A DNA stretch of 64,000 nt, taken from contig CAWFJP010000015.1 of assembly GCA_963816145.1 (NCBI GenBank), forward strand, positions 96,001 to 160,000, written 5' to 3'. Below the pieces are notes generated by a model, which worked only from the letters and a program-made list of their open reading frames with translations, searched no databases and was not told the origin of the DNA. The stretch is from an uncultured delta proteobacterium. GTDB lineage: Bacteria > Desulfobacterota > Binatia > UBA9968. This document shows, piece by piece, positions 1,593-18,230 of the stretch (positions within the stretch are counted from its first letter, which is position 1; the number at the start of each line of letters is the position of its first letter). A program made the translations under genes and the position numbers.

Positions 1593-2747
1593 GTGATTAA
1601 CCGAGAACGGCTAAAAAATTTCCTCATCGAACTGATCAAGATCGACAGTCTATCGCGAAGCGAATACGACGTCGCCATGCGATTGAAAAGCGAGCTGGAA
1701 GAACTCGGCGCCGAGCTAACGATCGATAACGCCGGCGAAATGGTCGGCGGCAATGTCGGTAATTTGATCGCGAAATTTGCCGGCACCGTCCCTGGGAGCC
1801 AACCGCTGCTGCTTTCCGCCCATATGGACACGGTGGTACCCGGTGAAGGCATCGTGCCGATCCTCGACGGCGATATCCTGCGCACCGACGGCACCACCGT
1901 GCTCGGCGGCGACGACAAGAGCGGCGTGGTGATCATTTGCGAAGTTTTGCGGGTCATCAAAGAAAACGCCATCCCCTGCTCCGCCATCGACGTCGTCTTC
2001 ACGATCTGCGAAGAGGCCGGGCTCATCGGCGCCAAATGTCTTGACGTCACCAGTCTGCGCGCACGCACCGGCCTAGTGCTCGACAGTGACTCGGTGGGCT
2101 TCTTGTTTACTAGAGCACCGGCCGCAAACCGCATGGAGTTTCGCGTCCACGGCTTGGAAGCCCATGCCGGGGTCTGCCCCGAAAAAGGCATCAACGCGAT
2201 CAAAGTCGCCGCCGAGGGCATCGCGCAAATGAACCTCGGTCGCATCGACCACGAGACCACGGCCAATATCGGCGTGATCGAAGGCGGCATGGCGGTCAAT
2301 ATCGTGCCCAATCAAGTCGTCCTCAAGGGCGAGGCGCGCAGCCATGATCCCGATAAACTCAAACGGCAGACGGAACATATGCAGCGCTGCCTCGAAGAAG
2401 CCGCGGCTAAACATGCGCTTGAGTTCGACGGCAAGCAACACCGAGCGCGAGTCGAAGCCAAGATCGAACGCGATTACGACCGCATGGACGTGCCGGAAAG
2501 CGCGCCCATCGTCCAGTTGGTGCACGCCGCCGCGAGGAATTTGAATCTCGAAGTCAAAACCCGCGCCACCGGCGGCGGTTGCGACGCTAACGTGCTCAAT
2601 CAAAAAGGGCTGGTGGTCGCCAATCTCGGCACCGGCATGCGTGAAATTCATACGGTCAACGAATGGCTCGATCTGAAGGATCTCTATCTATCGGCGCAGA
2701 TGGTTTTGGAAATTGTCAAACTGAACGCTGAAACCAACTTTGGTTAG
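1593..2747 (+). CDS. M20/M25/M40 metallopeptidase (peptidase T-like)
   Basis: SAHMDTV, GGDDKSG, CEEAG, GGGCDAN, IHT motifs. Confidence 0.9.
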   Translation: MINRERLKNFLIELIKIDSLSRSEYDVAMRLKSELEELGAELTIDNAGEMVGGNVGNLIAKFAGTVPGSQPLLLSAHMDTVVPGEGIVPILDGDILRTDGTTVLGGDDKSGVVIICEVLRVIKENAIPCSAIDVVFTICEEAGLIGAKCLDVTSLRARTGLVLDSDSVGFLFTRAPAANRMEFRVHGLEAHAGVCPEKGINAIKVAAEGIAQMNLGRIDHETTANIGVIEGGMAVNIVPNQVVLKGEARSHDPDKLKRQTEHMQRCLEEAAAKHALEFDGKQHRARVEAKIERDYDRMDVPESAPIVQLVHAAARNLNLEVKTRATGGGCDANVLNQKGLVVANLGTGMREIHTVNEWLDLKDLYLSAQMVLEIVKLNAETNFG

Positions 2748-2812
2748 GGGTGAAGGGTAAAGGGTTAGGCGTTGGTCCCCCCTCCCCTTGCCCCTCAACC
2801 TTTACCCCTTAC
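2745..2812. repeat. Inverted repeat with ~7-nt periodic arms (GGGGTGA/AGGGTAA ... TTACCCC)
   Basis: Same family as 51400-51473. Confidence 0.7.
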
Positions 2813-2824
2813 CGATATAAAAAC

Positions 2825-4270
2825 ATGCAAGCTGACGAAATCGGACTCTTACTCAAACAAGACCGCGGTCAATTCCTCGAATTCATCAGCGCCTTCGAGT
2901 ATCGCCGCAGCACGGGCCAGAAAAAACGCGAGGAGGAGCTTGCGCGGGAACTGGTACGTGTCCTGTCCGGCATGGCCAATGCCGACGGCGGCACAGTTTT
3001 AGTCGGCGTCGAACCCGACAAGAGCGTAACCGGCATTCCGCACACGGGTGATGAGTTACAGACGTTGACCCAAGCGCCGCAGAACCTGCTGCGCCCGCAG
3101 CTCTCTCCTGCCTGCGAAAAGATTCGCCTCGGCAATCTCCAACTGCTCAAGTTCGAAGTCGCTTCCAGCATGGACATTCACCGCATCGCCGGCGGCCGTT
3201 CGTTTTATCGCATCGCCGCCGAAACGCCGGCCCTGCCCAGCGAGCAAATCCACTCGCTCAAAGAAGCCAAACGCAATGTCTTTTATGAGCGCCAGCAAAC
3301 GCTCAACGCCACTTGGTACGACCTCGACATCGATCTGCTGACCCAGTTCGTCAACAAACTTCATCCTGGCCAAGATCCGCAAACGGTCCTGAGCCAAACC
3401 TATCATCTGCTCGATAACTCCCGCGCCATCCCCTGTCCCAATATGGCGGCGCTATTGCTCTTTGCCAAAGATCCAACGCGTTGGCATCCGCGCGCCGGCA
3501 TAGATTTCGTCAAGTACGAGGGCAACGAACGGCAGCACGGCGCGTCGCTCAACGTCGTCAAACGGATCCGCTTCGAAGCGCCGCTGGTGCGCTTGATCGA
3601 CGAGGCGGTGGGCCGGATCAAAGAACAAATTCGCGAGCGTACGATCTTGCACGACCTATTTTTCCGCGAGCGCTTGGAGTACCCGACCTTTGCCTGGCAG
3701 GAGGCACTGGTCAACGCCGTCGCCCACCGCGATTATTCCCTCGCCGGCGCTCCGGTGGAAGTGTGGATGTTCGACGATCATATCAGCGTGCGCAGTCCCG
3801 GTTTGCCGCCGCCGCCGGTCACTCTCGAACACTTGCGTCAGCAGAAAAGCATCCACTTCTCGCGCAATCCCTTGATTGTTCGGGTTCTCGCCGATCTGGG
3901 ATTTCTCCGCGAGATGGGCGAAGGCGTGCCGCGCATTTATCAAGAAATGGAAACCTACGGCCTCCATCCGCCCGAGCTTTCCGCCGAAGGCTTCATTTTC
4001 ACCGTGACCTTGCGCAACGCGCCGGTGTACGACGAGGCGACGCTGCGCTGGCTCAGCCAGTTCGCCAACAATCAAGTGAACATGCGCCAACGTCGGCTTT
4101 TGGCCTACGCCTACTGCCATGGCAAGACGTTCTCGACCACCGAGTATGAACGAATCGCCGAGGTCGACCGCGATACCGCCTATCGGGACATTCGGCTGAT
4201 GGTGAAAAGCGGCATCGTCGCGCCGCTGAAGCCGAAAAGCCGCAGCTACCGCATCGTCGAAAAACTCTAA
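2825..4270 (+). CDS. Schlafen/AlbA_2 domain + HATPase_c_4 (RecG-C-like) + HTH protein
   Basis: MANADGGTVLVGV (AlbA); EALVNAVAHRDY, RNPLI, GEGVPRI; C-terminal TAYRDI HTH; start taken at MQADEIG. Confidence 0.85.
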   Translation: MQADEIGLLLKQDRGQFLEFISAFEYRRSTGQKKREEELARELVRVLSGMANADGGTVLVGVEPDKSVTGIPHTGDELQTLTQAPQNLLRPQLSPACEKIRLGNLQLLKFEVASSMDIHRIAGGRSFYRIAAETPALPSEQIHSLKEAKRNVFYERQQTLNATWYDLDIDLLTQFVNKLHPGQDPQTVLSQTYHLLDNSRAIPCPNMAALLLFAKDPTRWHPRAGIDFVKYEGNERQHGASLNVVKRIRFEAPLVRLIDEAVGRIKEQIRERTILHDLFFRERLEYPTFAWQEALVNAVAHRDYSLAGAPVEVWMFDDHISVRSPGLPPPPVTLEHLRQQKSIHFSRNPLIVRVLADLGFLREMGEGVPRIYQEMETYGLHPPELSAEGFIFTVTLRNAPVYDEATLRWLSQFANNQVNMRQRRLLAYAYCHGKTFSTTEYERIAEVDRDTAYRDIRLMVKSGIVAPLKPKSRSYRIVEKL

Positions 4271-7935: not shown

Positions 7936-8607
7936 CTAAACCGGCCAGCTTTCCAATCGATAAGCCTGCTCCCAAAACAAATACTCGTAGCGGCTGCTGA
8001 GCATAAACAACTCCGCCATGCGCTTTTTCTCGGCGCTACCCGCCGTTGCGCCAAGGCGATCCATGAGCCGGATCTGCTCGCGCACCGGCTGCCAAAACGC
8101 CTCTGAAGCGTAGGTCTCGATCCACTCGCGATAGATCTTCGGTTTGACCGGCCGGCGTCTATATAGGCGCTTGCCGGTCGCGCCATAGATCCAGTAACAG
8201 GGCAACACCGCGGCGACTAGCTCGCCCAGGGTTCCGCCGCGCGCCACCGACTGTAAATGATCGATATAAGCCTGGGTGCGCGGCCCCTTGGGCACCGCGT
8301 CGAGTTGCTTGCGCGACAGCCCCAAGCTCTTGCCGAAGCTCGCGTGGAAGCTCCGCTCAACTTCCACCGCACCCAAAGCGTGCCGGCAAAATAGCTCCAA
8401 AATCTCCAGATTTGGCGACTTGGCGCCGCCCAGGCAGAGCACCTGGGCGAAGTCGAGAAGATACACATAGTCTTGCAAGATGAAATAGGTAAACCGATTC
8501 ATCGGCAGACTGCCGTCCTGCAATTCTTTCAAAAACGGATGACCGTCGATCGCCCGCCAGATCCGCTCGCTGCGCTGCCGCAGCTGACTGCTAAAGTTTT
8601 TTGTCAT
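7936..8607 (-). CDS. tenA: Thiaminase II / TenA
   Basis: HPF, FILQDYVYL, VLPCYWIY, WIETY, SRYEYLFW. Confidence 0.9.
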   Translation of the reverse strand: MTKNFSSQLRQRSERIWRAIDGHPFLKELQDGSLPMNRFTYFILQDYVYLLDFAQVLCLGGAKSPNLEILELFCRHALGAVEVERSFHASFGKSLGLSRKQLDAVPKGPRTQAYIDHLQSVARGGTLGELVAAVLPCYWIYGATGKRLYRRRPVKPKIYREWIETYASEAFWQPVREQIRLMDRLGATAGSAEKKRMAELFMLSSRYEYLFWEQAYRLESWPV

Positions 8608-8651
8608 GCGCCAGGATTAGCGAAAAATCCTTGGGAAGAAAAGCTGATGCA

Positions 8652-8722
8652 ACCACGAAACGCACGAAAAACAACGAAAGGCTAAAATCTCTATTTCGAA
8701 TGCTTGGGGTTTTTTATGGTTT
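8652..8722. repeat. Degenerate CACGAA-periodic inverted repeat
   Basis: AACCACGAAACGCACGAAAAACAACGAAA with a decayed right arm; family of 33339-33420. Confidence 0.5.
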
Positions 8723-8734
8723 AAGATTTCCGGA

Positions 8735-9751
8735 CTATTTCAATCCGTAACTCGCTGCTATTTTGTCGATAAAACCACTCTCATCGAGCTTGCGAATCAA
8801 GCGGCCGTCGATCAGCTCCTCGACCTTCACGCTGGCGATCTTCGGATTGAGCGTGGCGAGCAGCCGGCGAATGTTGTGCATGCCGTCCACCATCGGTATC
8901 GGCCGGCGCTCGACACCGGTCAAATAATCTTGATAGCCTTCCTCCGCCACCGCCGGGTCGTTGATCTGAAAGCGCCGCATCATGATTTTGATCACCACCG
9001 CTTTGTTCGCCGGCGCCATGCTATAGGCCAGACTATCGACCAGCGTCATAAGCAATTTCTCGGCGATATCCGCGCGCTTTTGCAGGAACTCCGGCGACAC
9101 CACTATCGCTTGACTGAGCAAGGGAATTTTCGCCGGCTGCAACTCGGCGACAATGGCGAAACCTTTACTGCGCAGTCGGCGCACCAACGCGCCGTCGAGC
9201 ACCGCCGCGTCTACCCTGCCGACCTCTAGAGCCTGGCCGACCAAGACTGAGTCGCCGATCGGTAGTAAATTGATGTTGTCACGCTTGTAATCTAAACCGA
9301 CATGTTCCAAAGCCAAGATCGTATTGATCCAGGTAGTCCCGCCGGGGTTTTGAATACCGAAGCGTTTACCGCGCAACTCTTCGGCGCGTTTGAGACTCGG
9401 ATGAGCGACCAGCGTATGCGTCAAAGTATTGGAGATCGACGAGAGAATTTTCAAATAAGAACCCTGGCCCGCCGCGCCCAAGACAGAGGTGCCGCCAGTG
9501 TAACCGACATCCATCTCGCCAGAGACCAAAGTCGCCACCAACGTCGCCGCGGCGCGCACCAATACGATCTTGGGATCCAGGCCGTACTTGGAGAATATAC
9601 CCTGCTCTTGGGCGAGATAGAGCGGCGTGGTACGCGGGCTGACGGCGGCATAACCGATGGTGAGCTTGGTTTGCGCCGATGCACGGTCAAAATGGATGAG
9701 GGCCGAGACGACAACTGCGCTCAATGAAACGACCAGTCTGAATTGATGCAT
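8735..9751 (-). CDS. ABC substrate-binding protein, NMT1/SsuA-like
   Basis: Signal peptide, GIFSKYGLD, LRGKRFG, LDESGFID. Confidence 0.88.
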   Translation of the reverse strand: MHQFRLVVSLSAVVVSALIHFDRASAQTKLTIGYAAVSPRTTPLYLAQEQGIFSKYGLDPKIVLVRAAATLVATLVSGEMDVGYTGGTSVLGAAGQGSYLKILSSISNTLTHTLVAHPSLKRAEELRGKRFGIQNPGGTTWINTILALEHVGLDYKRDNINLLPIGDSVLVGQALEVGRVDAAVLDGALVRRLRSKGFAIVAELQPAKIPLLSQAIVVSPEFLQKRADIAEKLLMTLVDSLAYSMAPANKAVVIKIMMRRFQINDPAVAEEGYQDYLTGVERRPIPMVDGMHNIRRLLATLNPKIASVKVEELIDGRLIRKLDESGFIDKIAASYGLK

Positions 9752-9813
9752 GACATCCCTCCGCAAAGCACGAACGACTATAAACCCGCAACAGTCCTTA
9801 ATGGACTTGCCTA

Positions 9814-9899
9814 CCCCTTTAGAAAAGGGGGATCGTGGGGGATTTATTCTCAGCCTTCGCCTGAAATCCCTCCTAACCTCCCTTTTTCAAAGGGAGGGA
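9814..9899. repeat. REP-like paired palindromes
   Basis: CCCCTTTAGAAAAGGGGG..GGGGGATTT ... AAATCCCTCC..CTCCCTTTTTCAAAGGGAG. Confidence 0.7.
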
Positions 9900-9964
9900 T
9901 CGGACCGGTAGTTCTACCAACCGTTCAGCATAGCCTTCAACGGTTGATCTATTTTGCCGCGCGC

Positions 9965-10807
9965 CTACTTATTCTCCGCCGGACGCTTCACCGGCTCCAG
10001 ACCGGGCCGGTATTTCTTCTCGTCGAGGAATTCGCGCATGCCCCGTTCGCGGGTGCGTTCCGGATCGGCGGCGCGCAGGGCCATGCTTTTGGCGCCGAGA
10101 TATTCGTACGCTTGGTCCATATCCATTCCGCGCACGGCGCGAATCGCATGCTTGGTATAAGCCAGAACCATCGGGCTCTTGGCCATCAATTCGCGGGCGA
10201 TCGTGATAGTCTCCTCGCGCAGCTTGTCGGCCGGCACCGCCATGGTGGCGATACCCATCTCAGCCGCCTTGCGGCCGTCGATGGTGCGGCCGGTCATGGC
10301 GTAGAACATGGCATTGCGGAATCCGACCAGCTCACCGAAAACTTTGCTGACATTACCGCCGGGAATGATGCCCCAATTGACTTCGGACAAACCGAAGGTG
10401 GCATTGTCCGCCGCGACGACAATGTCGCACGCCGCCAGCGAGACAAACGCACCACCGTAACAGTAGCCGTTGACCATGGCGATGGTCGGTTTGCGCGACC
10501 AGGTCAGCAACTCAGTCGCCCAACGCCGATGCGCCGTCGCCGCGCGAAAGCGCGCCACCGGATCTTTATCGGTCTCGCGGAAGTACTGCTTCAAGTCCAT
10601 CCCAGCGCTCCAGCTGTTCCCTGCGCCCGTAAGCACGATGACTTTAGTGTCTTCGTCGGTTTCCAGTCCGTAAAGGATCTCTTCCATCTCGACATGGAGC
10701 GTCGGGCTCATGGCATTACGCTTCTCCGGCCGATTGAAAGTGATCCAGGTAATTCCTTCGTCGTCGGTCTCGACAAGCACGCACGAGTATTCTTTTTTCT
10801 TAGCCAT
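9965..10807 (-). CDS. p-Hydroxycinnamoyl-CoA hydratase/lyase-like crotonase
   Basis: NRPEKRNAMSP, SAGMDLKQYFRE, SEVNWGIIPGG, FLDEKKYRPGL resemble HCHL/Ech. Confidence 0.85.
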   Translation of the reverse strand: MAKKKEYSCVLVETDDEGITWITFNRPEKRNAMSPTLHVEMEEILYGLETDEDTKVIVLTGAGNSWSAGMDLKQYFRETDKDPVARFRAATAHRRWATELLTWSRKPTIAMVNGYCYGGAFVSLAACDIVVAADNATFGLSEVNWGIIPGGNVSKVFGELVGFRNAMFYAMTGRTIDGRKAAEMGIATMAVPADKLREETITIARELMAKSPMVLAYTKHAIRAVRGMDMDQAYEYLGAKSMALRAADPERTRERGMREFLDEKKYRPGLEPVKRPAENK

Positions 10808-10865
10808 TGGAGTTCTCCTTTTTTTGAATCGTCGGAATGAATCGCTAGCGCGGATGGTCAAACTG

Positions 10866-11747
10866 TTAGCTCACATCAGACCACGGATCGGCCATCAAGC
10901 TCTCAGGACGTATTCCACTGGCGCGTGAATCTTGCAAAGCAACTTCCGCAAGCACAGAGGCAAGCGAGCCCGGGGCGGGAATCAGACTCGGCTCAAACAA
11001 GTTTGCGAATACGTGGTAACATTTGTCGAGCACTTCCGGGTTGCTGCGCAATACCGGCAGTTGGCGCCCAATCGCATCGAGCGCTAATGGCGCAGCGCTC
11101 TTGAACAACTGAATACTGTCACGATAAATCGTTGCGACTTTCCCGACCAGCTCGCGATTGGCGTCGAAATAACGCCGCGTGGTCGCCAGCGGCACCCAAT
11201 GGCATTCGAGATCGAGAGTGTCGGCGATGATCCGCAGCCCCGCCGACTCGGCCAAAAAGGCTTTCTCCGGCGGCAACAGCGCAGCACCGAGACCGCCGGT
11301 GCAAAGCGCTTCGTAACTGCGATCGTTAAGACCGAGATCGACGAGTTCAAGATCTTTCTCCCGGTCGAATTTCCAACGGCGCAAAAGCGCCAGCATCATC
11401 ATGCCTGCCATCCGGCGCGGCTGGTTGATGCCGACCCGTTTCCCTTTCAGGCTTCCGATTGATTCGATCGCAGGATTCGCTATCAAGTAAAACGCTGGCC
11501 GGTTCAAGACGCCGCCGATGATGACTAGGTCGTTGCCGGTGAGCTGGGAGAAGATCAGCGACGGCGCGTTGGGCGTGCCGATCGGCGTTACTTGATTGAC
11601 GATGTCGTCAACGACTTTTTCTTCATCCAATTGATTGACGATGTCGACGGCAAGATTTTCCTTTGTGAACAAACCCGCCGCCTCGGCCACATAAGGCAAA
11701 AACCGTCCGATGCTCGAAGTGCCGATGCCGATTTTGATGTGATCCAT
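10866..11747 (-). CDS. NMT1/SsuA-like substrate-binding protein without signal peptide
   Basis: GLFTKENLAV, LKGKRVGI. Confidence 0.8.
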   Translation of the reverse strand: MDHIKIGIGTSSIGRFLPYVAEAAGLFTKENLAVDIVNQLDEEKVVDDIVNQVTPIGTPNAPSLIFSQLTGNDLVIIGGVLNRPAFYLIANPAIESIGSLKGKRVGINQPRRMAGMMMLALLRRWKFDREKDLELVDLGLNDRSYEALCTGGLGAALLPPEKAFLAESAGLRIIADTLDLECHWVPLATTRRYFDANRELVGKVATIYRDSIQLFKSAAPLALDAIGRQLPVLRSNPEVLDKCYHVFANLFEPSLIPAPGSLASVLAEVALQDSRASGIRPESLMADPWSDVS

Positions 11748-11755
11748 TTAGAGCC

Positions 11756-12286
11756 TCAATCCAACTGCAAAGTCGCCGGCTCGTTGGCCAGGCGCTCACC
11801 CATACCGACATGGCGCAACCGCACCCATAATGCGTCGACCTCCGCCATCACCGCCTCATCGGGCCGATGGATATCGATCACATGTGCGACCGGCACCCAG
11901 CAAGCCCGCCCGGTTACCCAGAACACTTCCGAACGGTTGTCTTCCGGATCGAAGTAGTAACAGCCGAGAGCGCTGACATGGTTGACCACGGCATCGATGC
12001 GCAATCCGGCGGCCTGCAGTTTCTTGTGCATAGCGCGCAAATCTTCCAGGGTCGCAAGCCGCAGGGATATCTGATTGATCAAGCGCGAGTCGGCATCCTC
12101 CGGCCGGCCGCGGAACAGCGCGATCTCGTGATCCGCCTTCTCCGGATCCGCGCTAAAGAAGACGATGCCGGCGCGCCAGTTCTGCTTGGTGATGCGCATG
12201 CCGAGGGTGTCCCGGTAAAATGCCGCCATTTTTTCCAGATCCTTAACGTAGATACCGACATGTCCCAAACCCATCACGGCTGCCAT
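11756..12286 (-). CDS. VOC family (glyoxalase/extradiol dioxygenase-like) protein
   Basis: LGHVGIYV, FYRDTLGM, YFDPEDNRSE; GGAGG RBS. Confidence 0.88.
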   Translation of the reverse strand: MAAVMGLGHVGIYVKDLEKMAAFYRDTLGMRITKQNWRAGIVFFSADPEKADHEIALFRGRPEDADSRLINQISLRLATLEDLRAMHKKLQAAGLRIDAVVNHVSALGCYYFDPEDNRSEVFWVTGRACWVPVAHVIDIHRPDEAVMAEVDALWVRLRHVGMGERLANEPATLQLD

Positions 12287-12437
12287 CGGTGCCTCCAAGC
12301 GCCCAAGCGACGATCAAGTTATTGCCGTTATCTAGCGCCGAAGCGTGAGCGCAATCAAGCCTTGTCGCCGGCATCGCGCAAATTTTGCCCGCGTGCCGGG
12401 CTAGACAACAGCGGATACTTGCGCTACTGGGTTGGCC

Positions 12438-13190
12438 ATGAAACCGGATCAATTTATCGAAGAGCTCTGGAGTTACGCCGCCGAAGTGCCGATGGAGCGG
12501 CATCCTTGGTTCGACGGCATCATCAAGCATCGTTGGACCAAGGAGCAAATCGTTCTTGGCGAGGTGCAGCATTACCTCCGGGTCAGGACCAATCCGATCT
12601 TCTTCGGCCATATGGCGATCAACGCGGTGTCGGCCAAGGAATACACGGTGATGGAGACGGTGCTGGAAAATTTCATGGAGGAGTTGGGCGGTAAGCGCAC
12701 CCACGTCGACATTATGCTGCAATTTCTCGAGGAAGGCGGCATCTCGCGCGAACAGGCCGACAATGCCGAGCCCGCCCCAGGCACACTGGCGGCCATCGAA
12801 ATGATCATCGGCTGTTGCCAGCGCCGTTCAGCCCTCGAAGGCGTCGCCATGCTCGCCTTTGTCGAAAGCCAACTCGGCGGCGCCGGCAAGATTTCCGAGA
12901 AAGTTTATCGCGAACTCACCGGCCATTATGGCTTCTCACCGCGCGCTGCGGCCACCTACCAACTCCACGCCGCCCAGGACGAGGGCCATGGCAGCCGCCA
13001 GATCGAAGCCATCCGCTTGCTCGCCAGCGATGAGGCAACTCAGAACAAAATACGCGCTGCAGTGAAACTTGGCTTGACCGCATTCACGCTCGAGTGGGAC
13101 GGCCATGTTCAGGCCATGACGGGTAAGCGAGAGTTCTGGGGCGGCGTTAAAGATTTACAATTACGCCAACCGAAGGTGAAGCTCTCGTAA
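12438..13190 (+). CDS. Heme-oxygenase-like diiron enzyme (CADD/PqqC-like)
   Basis: EE-x6-H, FVE, H-x3-D-x2-H ligand set. Confidence 0.8.
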   Translation: MKPDQFIEELWSYAAEVPMERHPWFDGIIKHRWTKEQIVLGEVQHYLRVRTNPIFFGHMAINAVSAKEYTVMETVLENFMEELGGKRTHVDIMLQFLEEGGISREQADNAEPAPGTLAAIEMIIGCCQRRSALEGVAMLAFVESQLGGAGKISEKVYRELTGHYGFSPRAAATYQLHAAQDEGHGSRQIEAIRLLASDEATQNKIRAAVKLGLTAFTLEWDGHVQAMTGKREFWGGVKDLQLRQPKVKLS

Positions 13191-13498: not shown

Positions 13499-13912
13499 TC
13501 AATTCGAAATTCCGGAAAAACCCACTTTCTGTGCCGTGATCCGCTCGGTCGCTGTATGCGGTTCGCCAGCCGCATCAACTTCAACCCGTATGCGCACGAA
13601 GATCCGCCACGCTTCGCCGCGCCATTGACAGTGAAAAATCACAAAGGCGTTTTCAGTAACCAGCCCGGCCTGCTCATAACACTGGACAAGACTTTGGAAC
13701 TGTTCGCTTGCGCCCGCTGCCACCTCGAGCGCCGGCGTGAAATCCCGCACTGCCGATTTGAATTGACCATGGGGCAAGTGCACCGCAGTGATTGTTAACG
13801 CATCGCTATCAGGATTGTCTACTTGCCAGCGAATGTTCCAACATCCCACCGTCACATCCCGGGCGAGCGCAATCTGTTGCAATGCAATCCTCGGCTTAGA
13901 AGTCGATTCCAC
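13499..13912 (-). CDS. Hypothetical beta-rich protein
   Basis: ORF; TTGCAC-N18-TAAACT lies 6 nt before the GTG. Confidence 0.65.
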   Translation of the reverse strand: MESTSKPRIALQQIALARDVTVGCWNIRWQVDNPDSDALTITAVHLPHGQFKSAVRDFTPALEVAAGASEQFQSLVQCYEQAGLVTENAFVIFHCQWRGEAWRIFVRIRVEVDAAGEPHTATERITAQKVGFSGISN

Positions 13913-14305: not shown

Positions 14306-14767
14306 TCAACCGCGCGGTCCGACCCGCAGCGGACGGACTCGCGTTCGGGATAGACGGGAACTCCCCTTCCATTCCCGACCGCTTTTTAGTTTGCGCTTGA
14401 TATTGCGCCGCTGGTTCGGCTGCGCGCCTCCAGGATCGACACTTCCGATTGCCGGCGCCGTCCGGCCTACCGCCAAGATACCGCGGCGAATATAGCCCGG
14501 ATCCAGCTCCAATGTTTCGCAAACGTCTTTAAATGAAAATGGCAGCGAATCGTTTTCAGAAAAAATCCAGTTCTTGGCATCGTGGTAAAGGCGAATTGCC
14601 GCACGCTTCGCCGAGTTCTGGTACTTCCAATAACATTCGATGGCGTCGCTCAATACTGCGAGCATAAGCTCGCGCTCCGCCCCCGCCGGACCGTTTCTAG
14701 CACTCGAACCAAACAAAGAATCCGCAATGATCGGATCGACGCTCACTACCTTGGCAAACTCGCTCAT
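14306..14767 (-). CDS. Hypothetical protein
   Basis: ERELMLAVLSDAI..WIF..FSFKDVCETLELDPGYIR; GAGG RBS. Confidence 0.75.
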   Translation of the reverse strand: MSEFAKVVSVDPIIADSLFGSSARNGPAGAERELMLAVLSDAIECYWKYQNSAKRAAIRLYHDAKNWIFSENDSLPFSFKDVCETLELDPGYIRRGILAVGRTAPAIGSVDPGGAQPNQRRNIKRKLKSGREWKGSSRLSRTRVRPLRVGPRG

Positions 14768-14862: not shown

Positions 14863-15219
14863 TCAGGCAGCGGCAGTGCGAGGCGGCGAGCGACTGGAGC
14901 GAAGCGATATCAACGGCGTGCGAACAAAATCCTGCTGACGTGCGACACGGACGAAGGTAAAATAAAATCCCGGCGTAAACAGCCGGCTACCGACCGCCAA
15001 GGAGAGGTGCAGGTTATGGGTCAAACCGCTCTTGGAGGCAGGTTCTAGCTTGAAAACCTTTGTGCTAAGAGATCGCGCTCCGACGAGCGGATTACGGTCA
15101 TCGAGTTCAGGTTGGCCGATGAGCTGCAGTAAAAAGAAGAACGGCAAGGAGTATAAAAAAATCCGCGCCGCCACGCGGCGCGCGCTCCCCACCCGCTCAA
15201 TTGCAACACGAACCTTCAT
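14863..15219 (-). CDS. Single-TM protein ending in RSPP (candidate arrest peptide)
   Basis: Basic N-terminus, hydrophobic IFLYSLPFFFLLQLI, C-terminal SSRSPPRTAAA. Confidence 0.5.
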   Translation of the reverse strand: MKVRVAIERVGSARRVAARIFLYSLPFFFLLQLIGQPELDDRNPLVGARSLSTKVFKLEPASKSGLTHNLHLSLAVGSRLFTPGFYFTFVRVARQQDFVRTPLISLRSSRSPPRTAAA

Positions 15220-15228
15220 GCGCGACGG

Positions 15229-15257
15229 AACATATACGACATGGGTCAGGGCGTCAA
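15229..15257 (-). promoter_or_regulatory. Putative sigma70 promoter
   Basis: TTGACG-N17-TATGTT, 9 nt before ATG 15219. Confidence 0.5.
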
Positions 15258-15421
15258 GAACCGTCGAGAGCGCCACTTATAAAGACGAAATATCCCCGGC
15301 AAAGTACGTCCGAAGCGAGGTCGAAGGCACAACGCAAGGGGAAATGTTCTTCCGACTGAAAGCAGCTAACTATGCCTGCAGCGGGTTGTCACTGCCTGAG
15401 ACGTGCCCTAAGAGACGCGGC

Positions 15422-15521
15422 AAAAAAGGGCCAGCCTCCCTCTAATCGGAGAGGCTAGCCCATGGCGAGTCGCCTTACAATCGAGATTTACAACGGCCTC
15501 CCGTCTAACCGGTATTTGCAC
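15422..15521 (-). ncRNA. Repeated attenuator-like RNA, copy C, with intrinsic terminator
   Basis: GTGCAA-ATAC-CGGTTAG..CGTTGT..GGCGACTCGC then GGGCTAGCCTC..GAGGCTGGCCC-T6. Confidence 0.65.
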
Positions 15522-15547
15522 GACAACTCAGCCAAACCAACTCATCG

Positions 15548-16396
15548 CTACGCGTCCGACCCCACCTTGGGGCGCCATTTATCGAACTTGCCTTCTGCCC
15601 GGTCGAGGATTTCGGTACAAATCATGCCGGTGATAGCAAAGATCAAGACGCCGACAAAAACCTTATCGGTCTGAAAAGTCGCCCCCGCTACTGTGATCAT
15701 AAAACCGATCCCCGCCGTGGCGGCATAGAGCTCGCCCACCATGACACCGATCAAGGCCCGGCCGACCGCCAGTCTCAAGCCCGTAAGGATAAAAGGCACA
15801 GTCGAAGGAAGGACAACGCTTTTGAAAATTTGCCATTCCGAGGCGCCAAAGCTTCGGGCAGCGGTAAGAAGATTGTGCGGCGTGGTCTTCACGCCATCGC
15901 GGGTATTGATCAGCAGCGGAAAGACTGCCCCAAGAAAAATAATTCCGACTTTTGAGAGGATGCCGATACCCAGCCAGATGATAACCAATGGCAAAAGGGC
16001 GACGCGCGGGGTCGCGTTCATGGCGTTGACAAACGGATCACAAACGTAGGCGAACTTTCTATACCAACCGATCGCGATCCCGAACGGGACGCCAACGAGC
16101 ACCGACAAAAAATAGCCCCAAGCAAATTCGATCCCGCTAACCCTAAGATCATTCCAGATCTCTCCCGAACTGAATAGCTGCACGGCAGCTTTCCAGATCA
16201 AGGACGGCGCGCTCATGAACATAGGGTTGATGAGCTGAAAAGTCGAACCGACCAGTTCCCATATCGTGAGAAAAACCACGACCGATGCTGTGCCTAGGAT
16301 TTTTTTCTCCTGGTTAAGATAGAATTTATAGAGCTTAGATGCCTCCGCTACTCTAACGTCTAATAAGACTTCTTCTTGTGCCGTTTGGTCAGCCAT
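15548..16396 (-). CDS. ABC transporter permease, NitT/TauT/CmpB family
   Basis: ATPRVALLP, AARSFGA (EAA region), VGELYAATAGIG; GGAGG RBS. Confidence 0.92.
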   Translation of the reverse strand: MADQTAQEEVLLDVRVAEASKLYKFYLNQEKKILGTASVVVFLTIWELVGSTFQLINPMFMSAPSLIWKAAVQLFSSGEIWNDLRVSGIEFAWGYFLSVLVGVPFGIAIGWYRKFAYVCDPFVNAMNATPRVALLPLVIIWLGIGILSKVGIIFLGAVFPLLINTRDGVKTTPHNLLTAARSFGASEWQIFKSVVLPSTVPFILTGLRLAVGRALIGVMVGELYAATAGIGFMITVAGATFQTDKVFVGVLIFAITGMICTEILDRAEGKFDKWRPKVGSDA

Positions 16397-16450
16397 GGTT
16401 ACCCTCCTTTTTGGGTTAACACTCTTTGCGGTTCACAACTCCTTTTCCAC

Positions 16451-16506
16451 GCCCACGAATCGCCTGAACTGAACAGCAATCACGCTCACTTTGCCCGTAC
16501 GTTCAA
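16451..16506 (-). ncRNA. Repeated RNA element, degenerate copy D, no terminator
   Basis: TTGAAC-GTA-CGG-N13-GATTGCT..GGCGATT-CGT; spacing matches copies B and C. Confidence 0.45.
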
Positions 16507-16523
16507 CCGAACCGATCGCCAAT

Positions 16524-16620
16524 AAAAAAAGCCAGCCTCTCCCTTGCGGGATAAGCTGGCCTGCCTATAAGCTGGTCGCCGCATGAAGCAACCGTCGAAC
16601 TGGCTTACCGCTTATTGCAC
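16524..16620 (-). ncRNA. Repeated attenuator-like RNA, copy B, with intrinsic terminator
   Basis: GTGCAA-TAAG-CGGTAAG..GGTTGCT..GGCGACCAGC then GCCAGCTT..TCCC-GCAA-GGGA..AGGCTGGC-T7. Confidence 0.7.
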
Positions 16621-16625
16621 CTAAC

Positions 16626-16716
16626 AAAAAAGCCGACCCGATGTTGCCATCGAAAGGCCGGCCTCCGCCCCAACTGATTGCCTTTTGCTTTCGGCAACCC
16701 TTTGGGCCGTCTGCAA
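16626..16716 (-). ncRNA. Repeated attenuator-like RNA, copy A, with intrinsic terminator
   Basis: TTGCAGACGG..GGTTGCC..GGCAATCAGT then GCCGGCC..CGATG-GCAA-CATCG-GGTCGGC-T6. Confidence 0.7.
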
Positions 16717-16726
16717 ATCTTCGCAA

Positions 16727-16755
16727 ACCTTAATTCTGACTCAGAATAAAGTCAA
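16727..16755 (-). promoter_or_regulatory. Putative sigma70 promoter with palindrome in the spacer
   Basis: TTGACT-N17-TAAGGT; spacer holds ATTCTGA-G-TCAGAAT. Confidence 0.6.
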
Positions 16756-16758
16756 GGG

Positions 16759-17130
16759 CTATTTTTTGCGCGGTAGGGTCTTCTCTAAGTCGGACTCCAA
16801 GGCAAAAACAATAATCCTTTCGCTGCGGGTCGCGCTTATGTCTGTATAGAGACTCAACACCTGGATTCCGCAAATATCACCGATGACTTGGAATAGAACG
16901 GGCCGAGCATTTTTTATTAACGTGGTGCGGAGCATCTTAATCAGGTCGACCCCTTCAGAGCTTTTGGCTAACTGTTGCTCCGCTTGGGTTAGCACGCCTT
17001 TGAGTCGCACCAAAATCATATCCTCAACAATGAAAGAGCGAACCTCCTTGGGGCCGCGGCCCATGTATTCGACTTCAAACTTCACCATCGCTTCGCTAAT
17101 TTCCGCTTCGACCTCGCCTTTTGTTTTCAT
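16759..17130 (-). CDS. DUF2294 / MpsC (YbcI-like) protein
   Basis: KTKGEVEAEISEA, YMGRGP, RLKGVLTQAE, SLYTDIS..ERIIVF. Confidence 0.88.
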   Translation of the reverse strand: MKTKGEVEAEISEAMVKFEVEYMGRGPKEVRSFIVEDMILVRLKGVLTQAEQQLAKSSEGVDLIKMLRTTLIKNARPVLFQVIGDICGIQVLSLYTDISATRSERIIVFALESDLEKTLPRKK

Positions 17131-17186
17131 CGCGGTATTAATCCTATCGATACTCAACAAGTGTGGGTTCCTGGGGTTTGCGGCCG

Positions 17187-18230
17187 TTACGGATTGAGGC
17201 TGATTAATTTCCGCTGCGCTTCGTCCATAGCTGCTGGCCAGGCGCTGCGTTCTTTGTAGAACTGCACTGCCGCTGGATGGTAGGGCATCGTCACATCGGC
17301 GTCCACCGCCCGTTGCCGGGTCCAGTCTTTGAAGCTCGGGTGGAGCGGCAGCAGCTTATCGGTATTCTCCCAGATGTTTTTAAGTATCGTTTGCACGACC
17401 CGATCGTCGACCGCTTTGGAACTGGTCAGATAGATATCGTAGGCGTTGACGCAGGTATCGTCGGCGATCCCCGCCGCTTGGCCGCGTTTGAGCCAATGGG
17501 GATAGTAGCCGGGCACTGCCGCGCGCAGACGTTTCTCACCCTGCGCCGAACAGTCGAGCGAGATATGGCGCACGCCGATCGCGGCATCGGCTTCTTTGAC
17601 TTTGGCGGAATCGACCGCGTGCAGCGCAACGTCGGCGCGGCCTTGGATGAGCGCGTCCACACCTTCGTTGGCGCCCGGCACCGGAACTATCTTCACATCT
17701 CCAAACTTCATCCCAGCGCCGGTGAGAAAGCCAAAAATATTGTACCAATTGGCCAGCTGCGCCGGGTACTCACCGGTCAGTCTCTTGCCCCGGATATCGA
17801 GCACGCTCTTCATCGGCGCATCCTTGCGCACCAGCAGCGCCGTCATCAAAATCGCCCCGCGCATCACTAACCGGACATTGGGCGTATGCTGAAACGGATT
17901 GCGCCCGCCGATCTTCAAGCGCTCCGGCCCCTGATACGAAAGCGCCATGTCGACGGCATTGTTGATGCCGAAATCGACCTCGCCGCTATCGAGCAGCGGT
18001 AGAAACGTGCTCGTGCCCGAATAAGGCTGCACCACCATCTGAAACGGCGCCCCCTCGCTGGCCACCTTGGAAAGCCCGCTGGCCAGCGCATAGAAAACCG
18101 TCCCCGGCGGATTGGACCCCACCGTCACCGAGCGCGGTAACGGCTGCGCATTGGCGGTGGCGCAAAACCCAACGCTGAGAAGAATCAAAAAGGTAAGAAA
18201 CCGCCAAGACCCGCATGAAGTTGAACCCAT
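17187..18230 (-). CDS. TAXI-family TRAP solute-binding protein
   Basis: GSNPPGTVFY, YHPAAVQFYKE; signal peptide. Confidence 0.88.
   Translation of the reverse strand: MGSTSCGSWRFLTFLILLSVGFCATANAQPLPRSVTVGSNPPGTVFYALASGLSKVASEGAPFQMVVQPYSGTSTFLPLLDSGEVDFGINNAVDMALSYQGPERLKIGGRNPFQHTPNVRLVMRGAILMTALLVRKDAPMKSVLDIRGKRLTGEYPAQLANWYNIFGFLTGAGMKFGDVKIVPVPGANEGVDALIQGRADVALHAVDSAKVKEADAAIGVRHISLDCSAQGEKRLRAAVPGYYPHWLKRGQAAGIADDTCVNAYDIYLTSSKAVDDRVVQTILKNIWENTDKLLPLHPSFKDWTRQRAVDADVTMPYHPAAVQFYKERSAWPAAMDEAQRKLISLNP

Follow-up and report, generated by a model that had tools for sequence, protein, structure and literature searches.

The intergenic region between a DUF2294/MpsC gene and an ABC permease gene of an uncultured delta proteobacterium (GenBank assembly GCA_963816145.1; Desulfobacterota, Binatia, UBA9968) raises the question of whether its RNA is a regulatory attenuator and whether the DUF2294 protein acts on it. 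The region lies in a stretch of 64,000 nucleotides (contig CAWFJP010000015.1, positions 96,001 to 160,000), referred to here as the window, whose own coordinates are used throughout. The order on the minus strand is binding protein, DUF2294/MpsC, an intergenic region of 362 nt, ABC permease and a strong terminator, and the intergenic RNA between DUF2294 and the permease folds at −140.8 kcal/mol (z −3.86 versus shuffles). A first-pass annotation, made from the letters alone, had described four related hairpin elements here, three in tandem before the permease (A, B and D) and one behind it (C), and had proposed that DUF2294 is an ANTAR-like antiterminator or that the RNA is a riboswitch. Of this interpretation, an attenuation system tied to DUF2294 is retained and extends over several phyla, while the ANTAR family and the array of four are given up. 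The best explanation for elements A and B is that they are tandem copies of an uncatalogued leader-RNA family acting as a transcription attenuator.

Element A and its promoter

The DUF2294/MpsC gene (16759–17130, minus strand; 123 amino acids; PF10057, E 1.4e-35), the product of which is the candidate trans-acting factor, is present in a single copy in the genome of the window (7.8 Mb, 31 contigs). At its 3' end lies a σ70-type promoter (16727–16755, minus strand) with the −35 box TTGACT (16755–16750), a 17-nt spacer and the −10 box TAAGGT (16732–16727), and transcription is predicted to start near 16720, just 3' of the DUF2294 stop. The same geometry was found in 16 of 17 related loci, namely TTGAC(A/T), exactly 17 nt, TAnnn(T/A/G), exactly 7 nt and then the 5' motif of A. 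The −10 box of the window is weak and was missed by a generic promoter scan because it matches just three of the six consensus bases. The −35 box shares bases with the TGA stop in most relatives but is placed 6 nt past the TAG stop in the window, so that its conservation is not a coding constraint, and the fixed distance from promoter to motif indicates that A forms the 5' end of its own transcript, beginning near 16720.

Two covariance models were used in what follows: R1, built from 16 copies of A from the lineage of the window, and R2, built from 16 Clostridia-type copies (alignment A7) without that lineage. Element A (16626–16721, minus strand) scores 81.1 bits with R1 and 24.7 bits with R2 (E 0.0031). 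It consists of a 5' strand AUUUGC (16718–16713), a helix P1 of CCCAA/UUGGG (16706–16702 with 16673–16669) followed by a 2x2 AG/AG internal loop, a helix P2 of GGUUGCC/GGCAAUC (16699–16693 with 16682–16676) and a terminator, GGCCGGCC...GGUCGGCU with U6 (16663–16626).

A survey of 60 related genomes, 36 from the same family and 24 from two sister families, revealed DUF2294 in 16, all from the same family (16/36 versus 0/24). Element A follows the DUF2294 stop directly in 15 of these 16 relatives, the exception being L021, where the 3' end of the gene differs. In an RNAalifold alignment of 14 copies, 12 of 27 pairs show compensatory double changes; P1 reads CCCGA/UCGGG with GC, AU and GU at one pair, the 2x2 AG/AG loop is kept, P2 is variable and covarying, and the terminator stem GGCCGAC/GUCGGC is nearly invariant. 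Within the lineage of the window 94.9% of P1/P2 is paired, and 5 of the 11 pairs carry changes on both sides. The element is kept whatever gene comes next, be it the permease, a 52-aa two-helix peptide, a 32–34-aa peptide starting MGxWEPIFWI or a membrane protein of 192–234 aa. From its presence in 15 of 16 relatives and the double changes in 12 of 27 pairs it is clear that A is real, beyond chance, and its first-pass coordinates were right to within a few bases. One locus, L011 (genome G035), is a row in alignments A1 (14 copies) and A3 (16 copies) and hence in model R1, and holds a second A copy; the conclusions do not hang on this locus, as its arrangement recurs in L012 from another genome. 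At L044 (326–435) an apparent deletion has fused the 5' half of the A terminator to the middle of a small-peptide frame, with B and the peptide start gone.

Distribution of the leader family

The core of the family is GAAGGG-hairpin-CCAGU with the 2x2 AG/AG loop, a conserved 5' strand and a terminator directly after. R1 matches the genome of the window once, and the public records sharing the element are metagenome-assembled genomes of Candidatus Binatia or Deltaproteobacteria. An exact-pattern scan of species-representative genomes yielded 27 loci, 14 of them with a strong R1 match (62.5–103.6 bits); DUF2294 stands directly upstream on the same strand in all 14 and in none of the 13 non-matching loci, which come from unrelated taxa. 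Among 150 other genomes sampled across the phylum of the window, five carry PF10057. With strict filters R1 scores in just one of the five, and with filters off the best matches reach 39.8, 31.1, 22.7, 17.3 and 9.7 bits, the last not significant, each lying 90–170 nt downstream of DUF2294 on the same strand and behind a CCTTGAC-type promoter. These matches span 34% to 65% GC; the terminators keep GGCCGAC...GUCGGC in L059, L061 and L062, and read GGCCGGA...UCCGGC in L063 and GGCCGAAG...CUUCGGC in L060.

The leader also occurs in another phylum, that of an Oscillospiraceae genome (here Clostridia-type), where PF10057 was present in 79 of 251 genomes sampled. With filters off, R1 gave motif-like matches in 3.3-kb loci around the 30 best Clostridia-type DUF2294 genes, and 16 copies align cleanly as UUGGAAGAC-N-P1-AAGGGU-hairpin-ACCAGU-P1'-N-GUAAxCCAACAC-terminator. 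This alignment, A7, leaves out the poorly aligned L081, L083 and L067, and L068, L074, L075, L091 and L094 are also outside it; R2, built from it, adds 5 of the remaining 14 loci (L067, L074, L075, L081 and L091), and the motif is found within 1.5 kb in 21 of the 30 loci. When R2 was applied to both strands of the window with filters off, exactly two matches appeared at E ≤ 10, and these are A and B. This reciprocal detection is the main argument for placing A in a family far older than the lineage in which it is found here. At E ≤ 0.001 R2 matches 12 of 151 Clostridia-type genomes, nine of which contributed training sequences, and all 12 carry DUF2294; 17 of the 18 matches are no further than 2.6 kb from a DUF2294 gene or fragment, and 11 of them follow one on the same strand at a distance of at most 400 nt. 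The leader family thus adjoins DUF2294 genes across phyla, and the linkage that the first-pass annotation had anticipated holds in all 14 pattern-scan loci and in several phyla. A differently arranged copy was seen at L065 (1303–1392, plus strand; genome G233), where a good leader (R2, 76.4 bits) converges on the DUF2294 3' end and no open reading frame (ORF) was found after it on its own strand.

A comparison with Rfam 15, which included the ykkC motif, the DUF1646 Na+ motif and the NMT1 motif, gave no match to any of these three and no match at gathering score in the whole window. Positions 15200–17300 returned just two chance-level rows at E ≤ 10, and 20 loci of the other phylum only three rows of miRNA models on hairpins (E 0.03–0.078); the match to a known Rfam family that would have counted against the proposal was therefore not seen in the window or in those 20 loci. 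No description of the leader RNA or of a DUF2294 function was found in the literature, where supplementary tables of motif-discovery studies might list the RNA.

Elements B, C and D

Element B (16524–16623, minus strand) is matched by R1 at 30.4 bits (E 1.1e-5) and by R2 at 15.9 bits (E 0.35), a weak match which is nevertheless the second best in the whole window. It comprises a 5' box CGGUAAGCC, a hairpin GGUUGC/GCGACC within an outer helix, and a terminator AGGCCAGC...GCUGGCU with U7 (16562–16524), and is without the P1 helix of A. An alignment of 12 copies has 25 pairs, 10 with double changes, and ends in a sequence-conserved terminator, GGCAGGCCAGC...GCUGGCC. Conservation in 12 copies with covariation at 10 of 25 pairs shows that B too is real, beyond chance, and lies within a few bases of where it had been placed. 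It is found in permease loci and in some peptide loci, and L057 and L046 have a second A+B pair further on, before a small peptide and a DUF2294 paralogue. Judged from its layout and model scores, B appears to be a diverged second copy of the leader family of A. In two GC-rich loci from other families, L062 and L063, a second conserved element, CCCAACGGCGCAAGGG..CCCGGGCGCCCGACGGCCGG, lies about 130–230 nt past the DUF2294 stop, followed by a terminator-like CCGGCCGUUU; this element may be the counterpart of B.

Element C (15422–15535, minus strand) is the permease terminator, with 13 pairs in the terminator scan, together with a species-specific hairpin that holds a short B-like word. Its terminator stem spans 15461–15428 and is followed by T6. 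R1 reaches 11.7 bits on it (E 0.53), on the terminator only, and R2 gave no match at C in a scan of the whole 64-kb window. The closest relative, L010, whose DUF2294 is 95% identical, has kept of C just the terminator and the preceding GACTCGCCAT. In L023, L024 and L025 a long conserved hairpin, GGCCAATGACGCGC...GCGCGTCATTGGCC, without a T run replaces C just past the permease stop. Element D (16451–16506, minus strand) forms a local hairpin within the spacer that leads to the permease start and is not a member of the family. Neither model matches it at E ≤ 10, and it is absent from other permease loci, in several of which the B terminator is followed directly by the ribosome-binding site.

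The four elements, described as related from a shared order of motifs, are not significantly alike as plain sequence, with one exception: B versus C is the sole pair above shuffles, being reached by 2 of 1000, and this rests on the terminator 3' arm, since the similarity of the 5' parts of B and C was matched by 275 of 1000 shuffles. D is not more similar to A, B or C than shuffled sequences are. Because A to D are not significantly alike as sequence, the internal alignment of the first-pass annotation was insufficient for its claim; comparison among genomes upholds A and B as conserved, while D has no model match and the 5' part of C is not conserved, so that the array of four is really one of two. 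The word GTGCAA-N4-CGGTWAG, reported as common to B and C, does occur exactly twice in the 7.8-Mb genome, in these two elements; its one-mismatch form is not enriched (7 matches versus 22 for a reversed control). That A, B and C end in terminators with T runs was correct, as all three have GC-rich stems, followed by U6, U7 and T6, respectively.

Termination and read-through

In the Clostridia-type copies a second fold is available, since UUGGA in the 5' strand can pair with UCCAA in the terminator 5' arm (helix P0), with compensatory variants such as GUUGGU/ACCAAC and GUUGAC/GUCAAC. Over the 16 copies 80.2% of P0 is paired and both sides change at 4 of its 6 pairs; the whole read-through structure is 86.1% paired as against 72.2% in shuffles, none of 500 of which reaches that value, and 24–41% when slid. 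In A of the window the terminator fold has −46.1 kcal/mol versus −33.9 with P0 enforced; the terminator fold being the more stable, termination would be the default and a factor must favour read-through. The conserved terminators of A and B in series agree with the earlier suggestion that two terminators in one leader imply regulated read-through.

Contigs from metatranscriptomes of three studies, with 90–99% likeness, run through the B terminator into the permease gene, one of them across the A terminator as well. Contigs of two studies stop at 16692 and 16703, 17–28 nt short of the predicted start, which is a weak hint in its favour. In all four metatranscriptome runs 16707–16974, which holds the promoter and the 3' half of DUF2294, is uncovered by contigs, a gap that proves nothing.

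Three further pairings were considered and set aside. Between GGYAGGYC, the 5' box of B, and the terminator 3' arm pairing reaches 84.5%, against 82.8% in shuffles, and as 62 of 500 shuffles do as well it has no support. Pairing of the terminator loop with the 5' strand as a pseudoknot (UCAG/CUGA or GCAA/UUGC), suggested by eye in some copies, is inconsistent in L013, L018 and L019. In the lineage of the window the P1 3' arm GUCGG could also join CCGAC of the terminator as an alternative antiterminator (−29.7 kcal/mol when enforced), but this pairing does not covary, and the other phylum has nothing equivalent.

The mode of action may be pictured as follows. With the terminator as the default fold the permease would be off. 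The 5' strand at the start of the RNA would pair with the terminator 5' arm as P0, enclosing the hairpin and blocking termination, and DUF2294 would bind the hairpin and junction and stabilise this read-through fold, possibly after a signal related to inorganic carbon. Elements A and then B, as switches in series, might sharpen the response, and the permease would then be expressed or, in relatives, the small membrane peptides and the membrane protein.

Protein factor or ligand

On balance DUF2294 appears to be a trans-acting factor for read-through of the terminators by RNA polymerase, possibly responsive to inorganic carbon, and it is a good candidate for a new RNA-binding gene regulator. 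In favour of the protein are the place of its gene, ahead of the promoter from which the RNA is made, the variety of the genes that follow, and the presence of DUF2294 in every RNA-positive genome. The main alternative is a true riboswitch, in which the hairpin and junction bind a small ligand (bicarbonate, an ion or an intermediate of carbon metabolism) and DUF2294 is a mere related or co-regulated neighbour. The layout is that of an ON switch, with P0 against the terminator and a conserved junction GAAGAC/GUAA beside the AG/AG loop; the downstream gene set is coherent in the Clostridia-type phylum; tandem copies are known for riboswitches; and some Clostridia-type copies stand upstream of DUF2294 itself (L073, L076), as they would before a member of the regulon. 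DUF2294 is mostly found, however, upstream of the RNA and its promoter, so that it is usually not controlled by the RNA, and it keeps its place as the genes downstream are exchanged, as is expected of a regulator beside its site. Moreover, in one phylum none of 12 RNA-positive genomes is without DUF2294, nor is either of 2 in the other (model matches with strict filters), and the conserved part is one short hairpin, small for a selective pocket for an anion or a gas. A riboswitch independent of DUF2294 is the less likely reading but a serious rival. The protein and ligand readings are compatible, as the protein may need a small effector.

It was also considered whether DUF2294 might be a DNA-binding factor acting on the promoter at the 3' end of its own gene, the leader being a separate attenuator for another signal. 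The CCTTGAC −35 box at or overlapping the DUF2294 stop is indeed conserved across families of the phylum, but TTGAC-N17-TAnnnT is a plain good σ70 promoter in which no extra conserved palindrome was seen, and the RNA begins 12–20 nt after the DUF2294 match in several Clostridia-type loci. The conservation that tracks DUF2294 across phyla sits in the transcribed hairpin and terminator, with covariation, and therefore points to RNA, so that the DNA-binding explanation is improbable. Least probable is that A is a free-standing trans-acting small RNA of about 95 nt, with the downstream genes separately controlled. This would suit its own promoter, its very stable terminator and the copy in G233 that converges on DUF2294, behind which no ORF was found on the strand of the copy. 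It would not suit the tandem copies, the RNA contigs bridging terminators into the permease gene, or the co-oriented genes 16–100 nt past most copies, which have a ribosome-binding site but no promoter that can be seen.

Several observations weigh against a DUF2294-dependent antitermination switch. P0 was proposed from the same sequences in which it was later counted, which favours it. In the lineage of the window 69.6% of P0 (GUYUG.. with ..CCGAC) is paired, none of its pairs is changed on both sides and the middle one never forms; the window itself can pair at only 4 of 6 positions, and here the pairing seems only compatible with the alignment. No covarying antiterminator was found for B. 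Contigs from RNA libraries may hold DNA, and they give neither ends nor strand. A motif was not found nearby in 9 of the 30 Clostridia-type DUF2294 loci, and the co-occurrence counts overstate significance because related genomes are not independent. The predicted DUF2294 fold resembles no known RNA-binding regulator in Foldseek and VIA comparisons. As for the signal, HtpX, Usp and a protein of unknown kind are among the targets in the phylum of the window, and the target in the window is a TauC-like permease without a demonstrated link to inorganic carbon.

The DUF2294 protein

The match to PF10057 covers profile positions 1–110 of 111 with 122.1 bits (cut-off 23), and a Pfam scan of the 123-aa protein at E ≤ 0.01 gave this family only. 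An AlphaFold2 model of high confidence (pLDDT 97.1, pTM 0.88) has the order helix, two strands, two helices, two strands. Foldseek returned nothing at E ≤ 0.001, the best Z value of VIA (6.9) perhaps reflects a mere common arrangement, and a sequence search of the PDB gave no match below E 0.8. No family assignment was drawn from the weak fold rows (Bet3/TRAPP, H-NOX, V4R, RbfA, phage neck proteins and designed proteins; Foldseek E ≥ 0.012, VIA Z ≤ 6.9).

Comparison with known antitermination systems

ANTAR proteins (EutV, NasR, AmiR) likewise mediate antitermination at leaders of transport and assimilation genes. Their domain constitutes family PF03861, and their targets are two adjacent short hairpins with six-base loops. 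DUF2294 shows no ANTAR domain in the Pfam scan at E ≤ 0.01, and its leader has a single long P1–P2 hairpin, with an apical region of widely varying length among 16 copies, and no dual-hexaloop target; the description of DUF2294 as ANTAR-like can therefore not be taken as membership. HutP, which acts on the hut operon leader of Bacillus subtilis, is a small protein with effector-dependent RNA binding that brings about read-through. DUF2294 resembles it as a small single-domain protein encoded directly upstream of a terminator-bearing leader; it differs in that this leader lacks a run of UAG triplets and has its own promoter after the regulator gene. HutP has no Pfam match in DUF2294 and is not among the Foldseek or VIA rows, though an unlisted family is not thereby excluded.

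The BglG, LicT, SacY and GlcT antiterminators with their ribonucleic antiterminator (RAT) elements are alike in principle, as the antitermination element shares nucleotides with the terminator 5' arm and termination is the default. BglG, LicT and SacY consist of a CAT RNA-binding domain followed by PRD domains; DUF2294, with 123 aa, has neither, its leader RNA is unrelated and without an Rfam match, and there is no sign of control by the phosphotransferase system (PTS). ON riboswitches such as guanidine-I (ykkC) and the Na+ DUF1646 motif share the competition of an outer helix with an intrinsic terminator and the occurrence in tandem copies. Unlike them, the DUF2294 leader has no match in Rfam 15, and its strict linkage to one protein family is atypical of riboswitches. 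The ykkC motif is also reported to precede ABC transporters of the nitrate/sulfate/bicarbonate type and carboxylases (PMC7266159).

Downstream genes and inorganic carbon

The genes next to the 16 Clostridia-type copies include members of the Sbt_1 bicarbonate-transporter family (two), an archaeal-type PEP carboxylase (PEPcase_2; three), AIR carboxylase (AIRC; three), a CODH/ACS subunit (CO_dh; one) and MpsC/DUF2294 (three), the remaining targets being DUF4914, an MFS protein, a Na_sulph_symp/CitMHS transporter and one copy without an ORF found. In the phylum of the window the targets are HtpX, monomeric isocitrate dehydrogenase, Usp, an unknown protein and a weak DUF2294 paralogue, which scores 22.7 bits against the cut-off of 23. 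The open frame after this paralogue resembles an SbtA-type permease by eye only. The theme of inorganic carbon is thus clear in the Clostridia-type phylum and suggestive in that of the window, and the position of the leader before inorganic-carbon genes in the other phylum fits the guess of the first-pass annotation that CO2 or bicarbonate is sensed.

In Staphylococcus aureus, deletion of mpsC is reported to cause no growth defect, MpsAB to work without mpsC, and mpsA to be down-regulated at 5% CO2 (PMC6689103); on these findings a regulator fits better than a transporter subunit. It is tentatively proposed, as one possibility, that inorganic carbon (CO2/bicarbonate or a direct proxy) is what DUF2294/MpsC senses, and that the protein binds the leader RNA and so antiterminates bicarbonate transporters, carboxylases and membrane proteins.

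Two families of very small membrane peptides, neither with a Pfam match, were observed behind the leader in relatives. One is a two-helix peptide of 52–54 aa; the other has 32–50 aa, starts M(G/E)xWxPIFWI and overlaps the start of the DUF2294 paralogue in L057. Small-peptide sites are L014 (about 2055–2215), L035 (7243–7401), L020 (about 2131), L040 (4004) and L057 (3380–3532).

Neighbouring genes

The genes had been named correctly as DUF2294 and a permease, and Pfam scans agree. The permease (15548–16396, minus strand; BPD_transp_1, E 3.1e-29), which would be gated by A and B, is of the TauC/SsuC/SaoP kind, with NCBIfam scores of 150.7 bits for SaoP, 146.9 for TauC, 121.3 for SsuC and just 90.8 for nitrate ntrB, all below cut-off. 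As we take CmpB to group with NrtB, the assignment to a family including CmpB was not borne out. No ABC ATPase gene was found within about 15 kb of the permease. Among relatives whose DUF2294 is 59–95% identical the permease is 83–96% identical, and in L043, L046, L047, L053 and L057 the orphan permease is 83–88% identical versus 59–67% for DUF2294. It carries a conserved N-terminal extension, MADQ..EEVLLDVRVAEASKLYKFYLNQEKKILG.

The gene upstream of DUF2294 (17187–18230, minus strand) encodes a TAXI/NMT1_3-type solute-binding protein (Pfam NMT1_3, E 1.1e-24; NCBIfam TIGR02122 TRAP_TAXI, 109.8 bits, above the cut-off of 84.35). Its position is not conserved, UbiD and ArsC-family genes being found there in relatives; the order in most of them (L013, L014, L020) is UbiD-family (de)carboxylase, ArsC-family protein, DUF2294, leader, and in L020 a SAICAR synthetase gene (PurC; 2372–3367) lies downstream. 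Two ORFs downstream of C on the minus strand, 14306–14767 (153 aa) and 13499–13912 (137 aa), are without a Pfam match. Further along, 7936–13190 holds a cluster resembling a pyrimidine/thiamine-salvage neighbourhood and unrelated to the leader, with TenA/THI-4 (7936–8607), NMT1/THI5-like binding proteins (8735–9766 and 10866–11747), an enoyl-CoA hydratase, a glyoxalase-family protein and a Haem_oxygenas_2/TenA-like protein (12432–13190).

Implications for the DUF2294 family

PF10057 is widespread, with 1371 clusters at E ≤ 0.001 among 1.84 billion representative proteins, and from the data presented here it acquires a specific role open to testing, that of protein partner to a conserved terminator switch. 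The RNA family defined here is absent from Rfam 15. If DUF2294 drives an antitermination switch that answers to inorganic carbon, the orphan TauC-like permease of the window, which is highly conserved, should be part of that response. If the signal is inorganic carbon, this would explain why mpsC lies beside mpsAB in staphylococci without a transport phenotype (PMC6689103). It would also open a long-standing gap concerning how CO2 or bicarbonate is sensed in the gene expression of non-photosynthetic bacteria, and, if true, CO2/bicarbonate sensing by DUF2294 would be the first gene switch responding to CO2 or bicarbonate at the RNA level, extending over several phyla.

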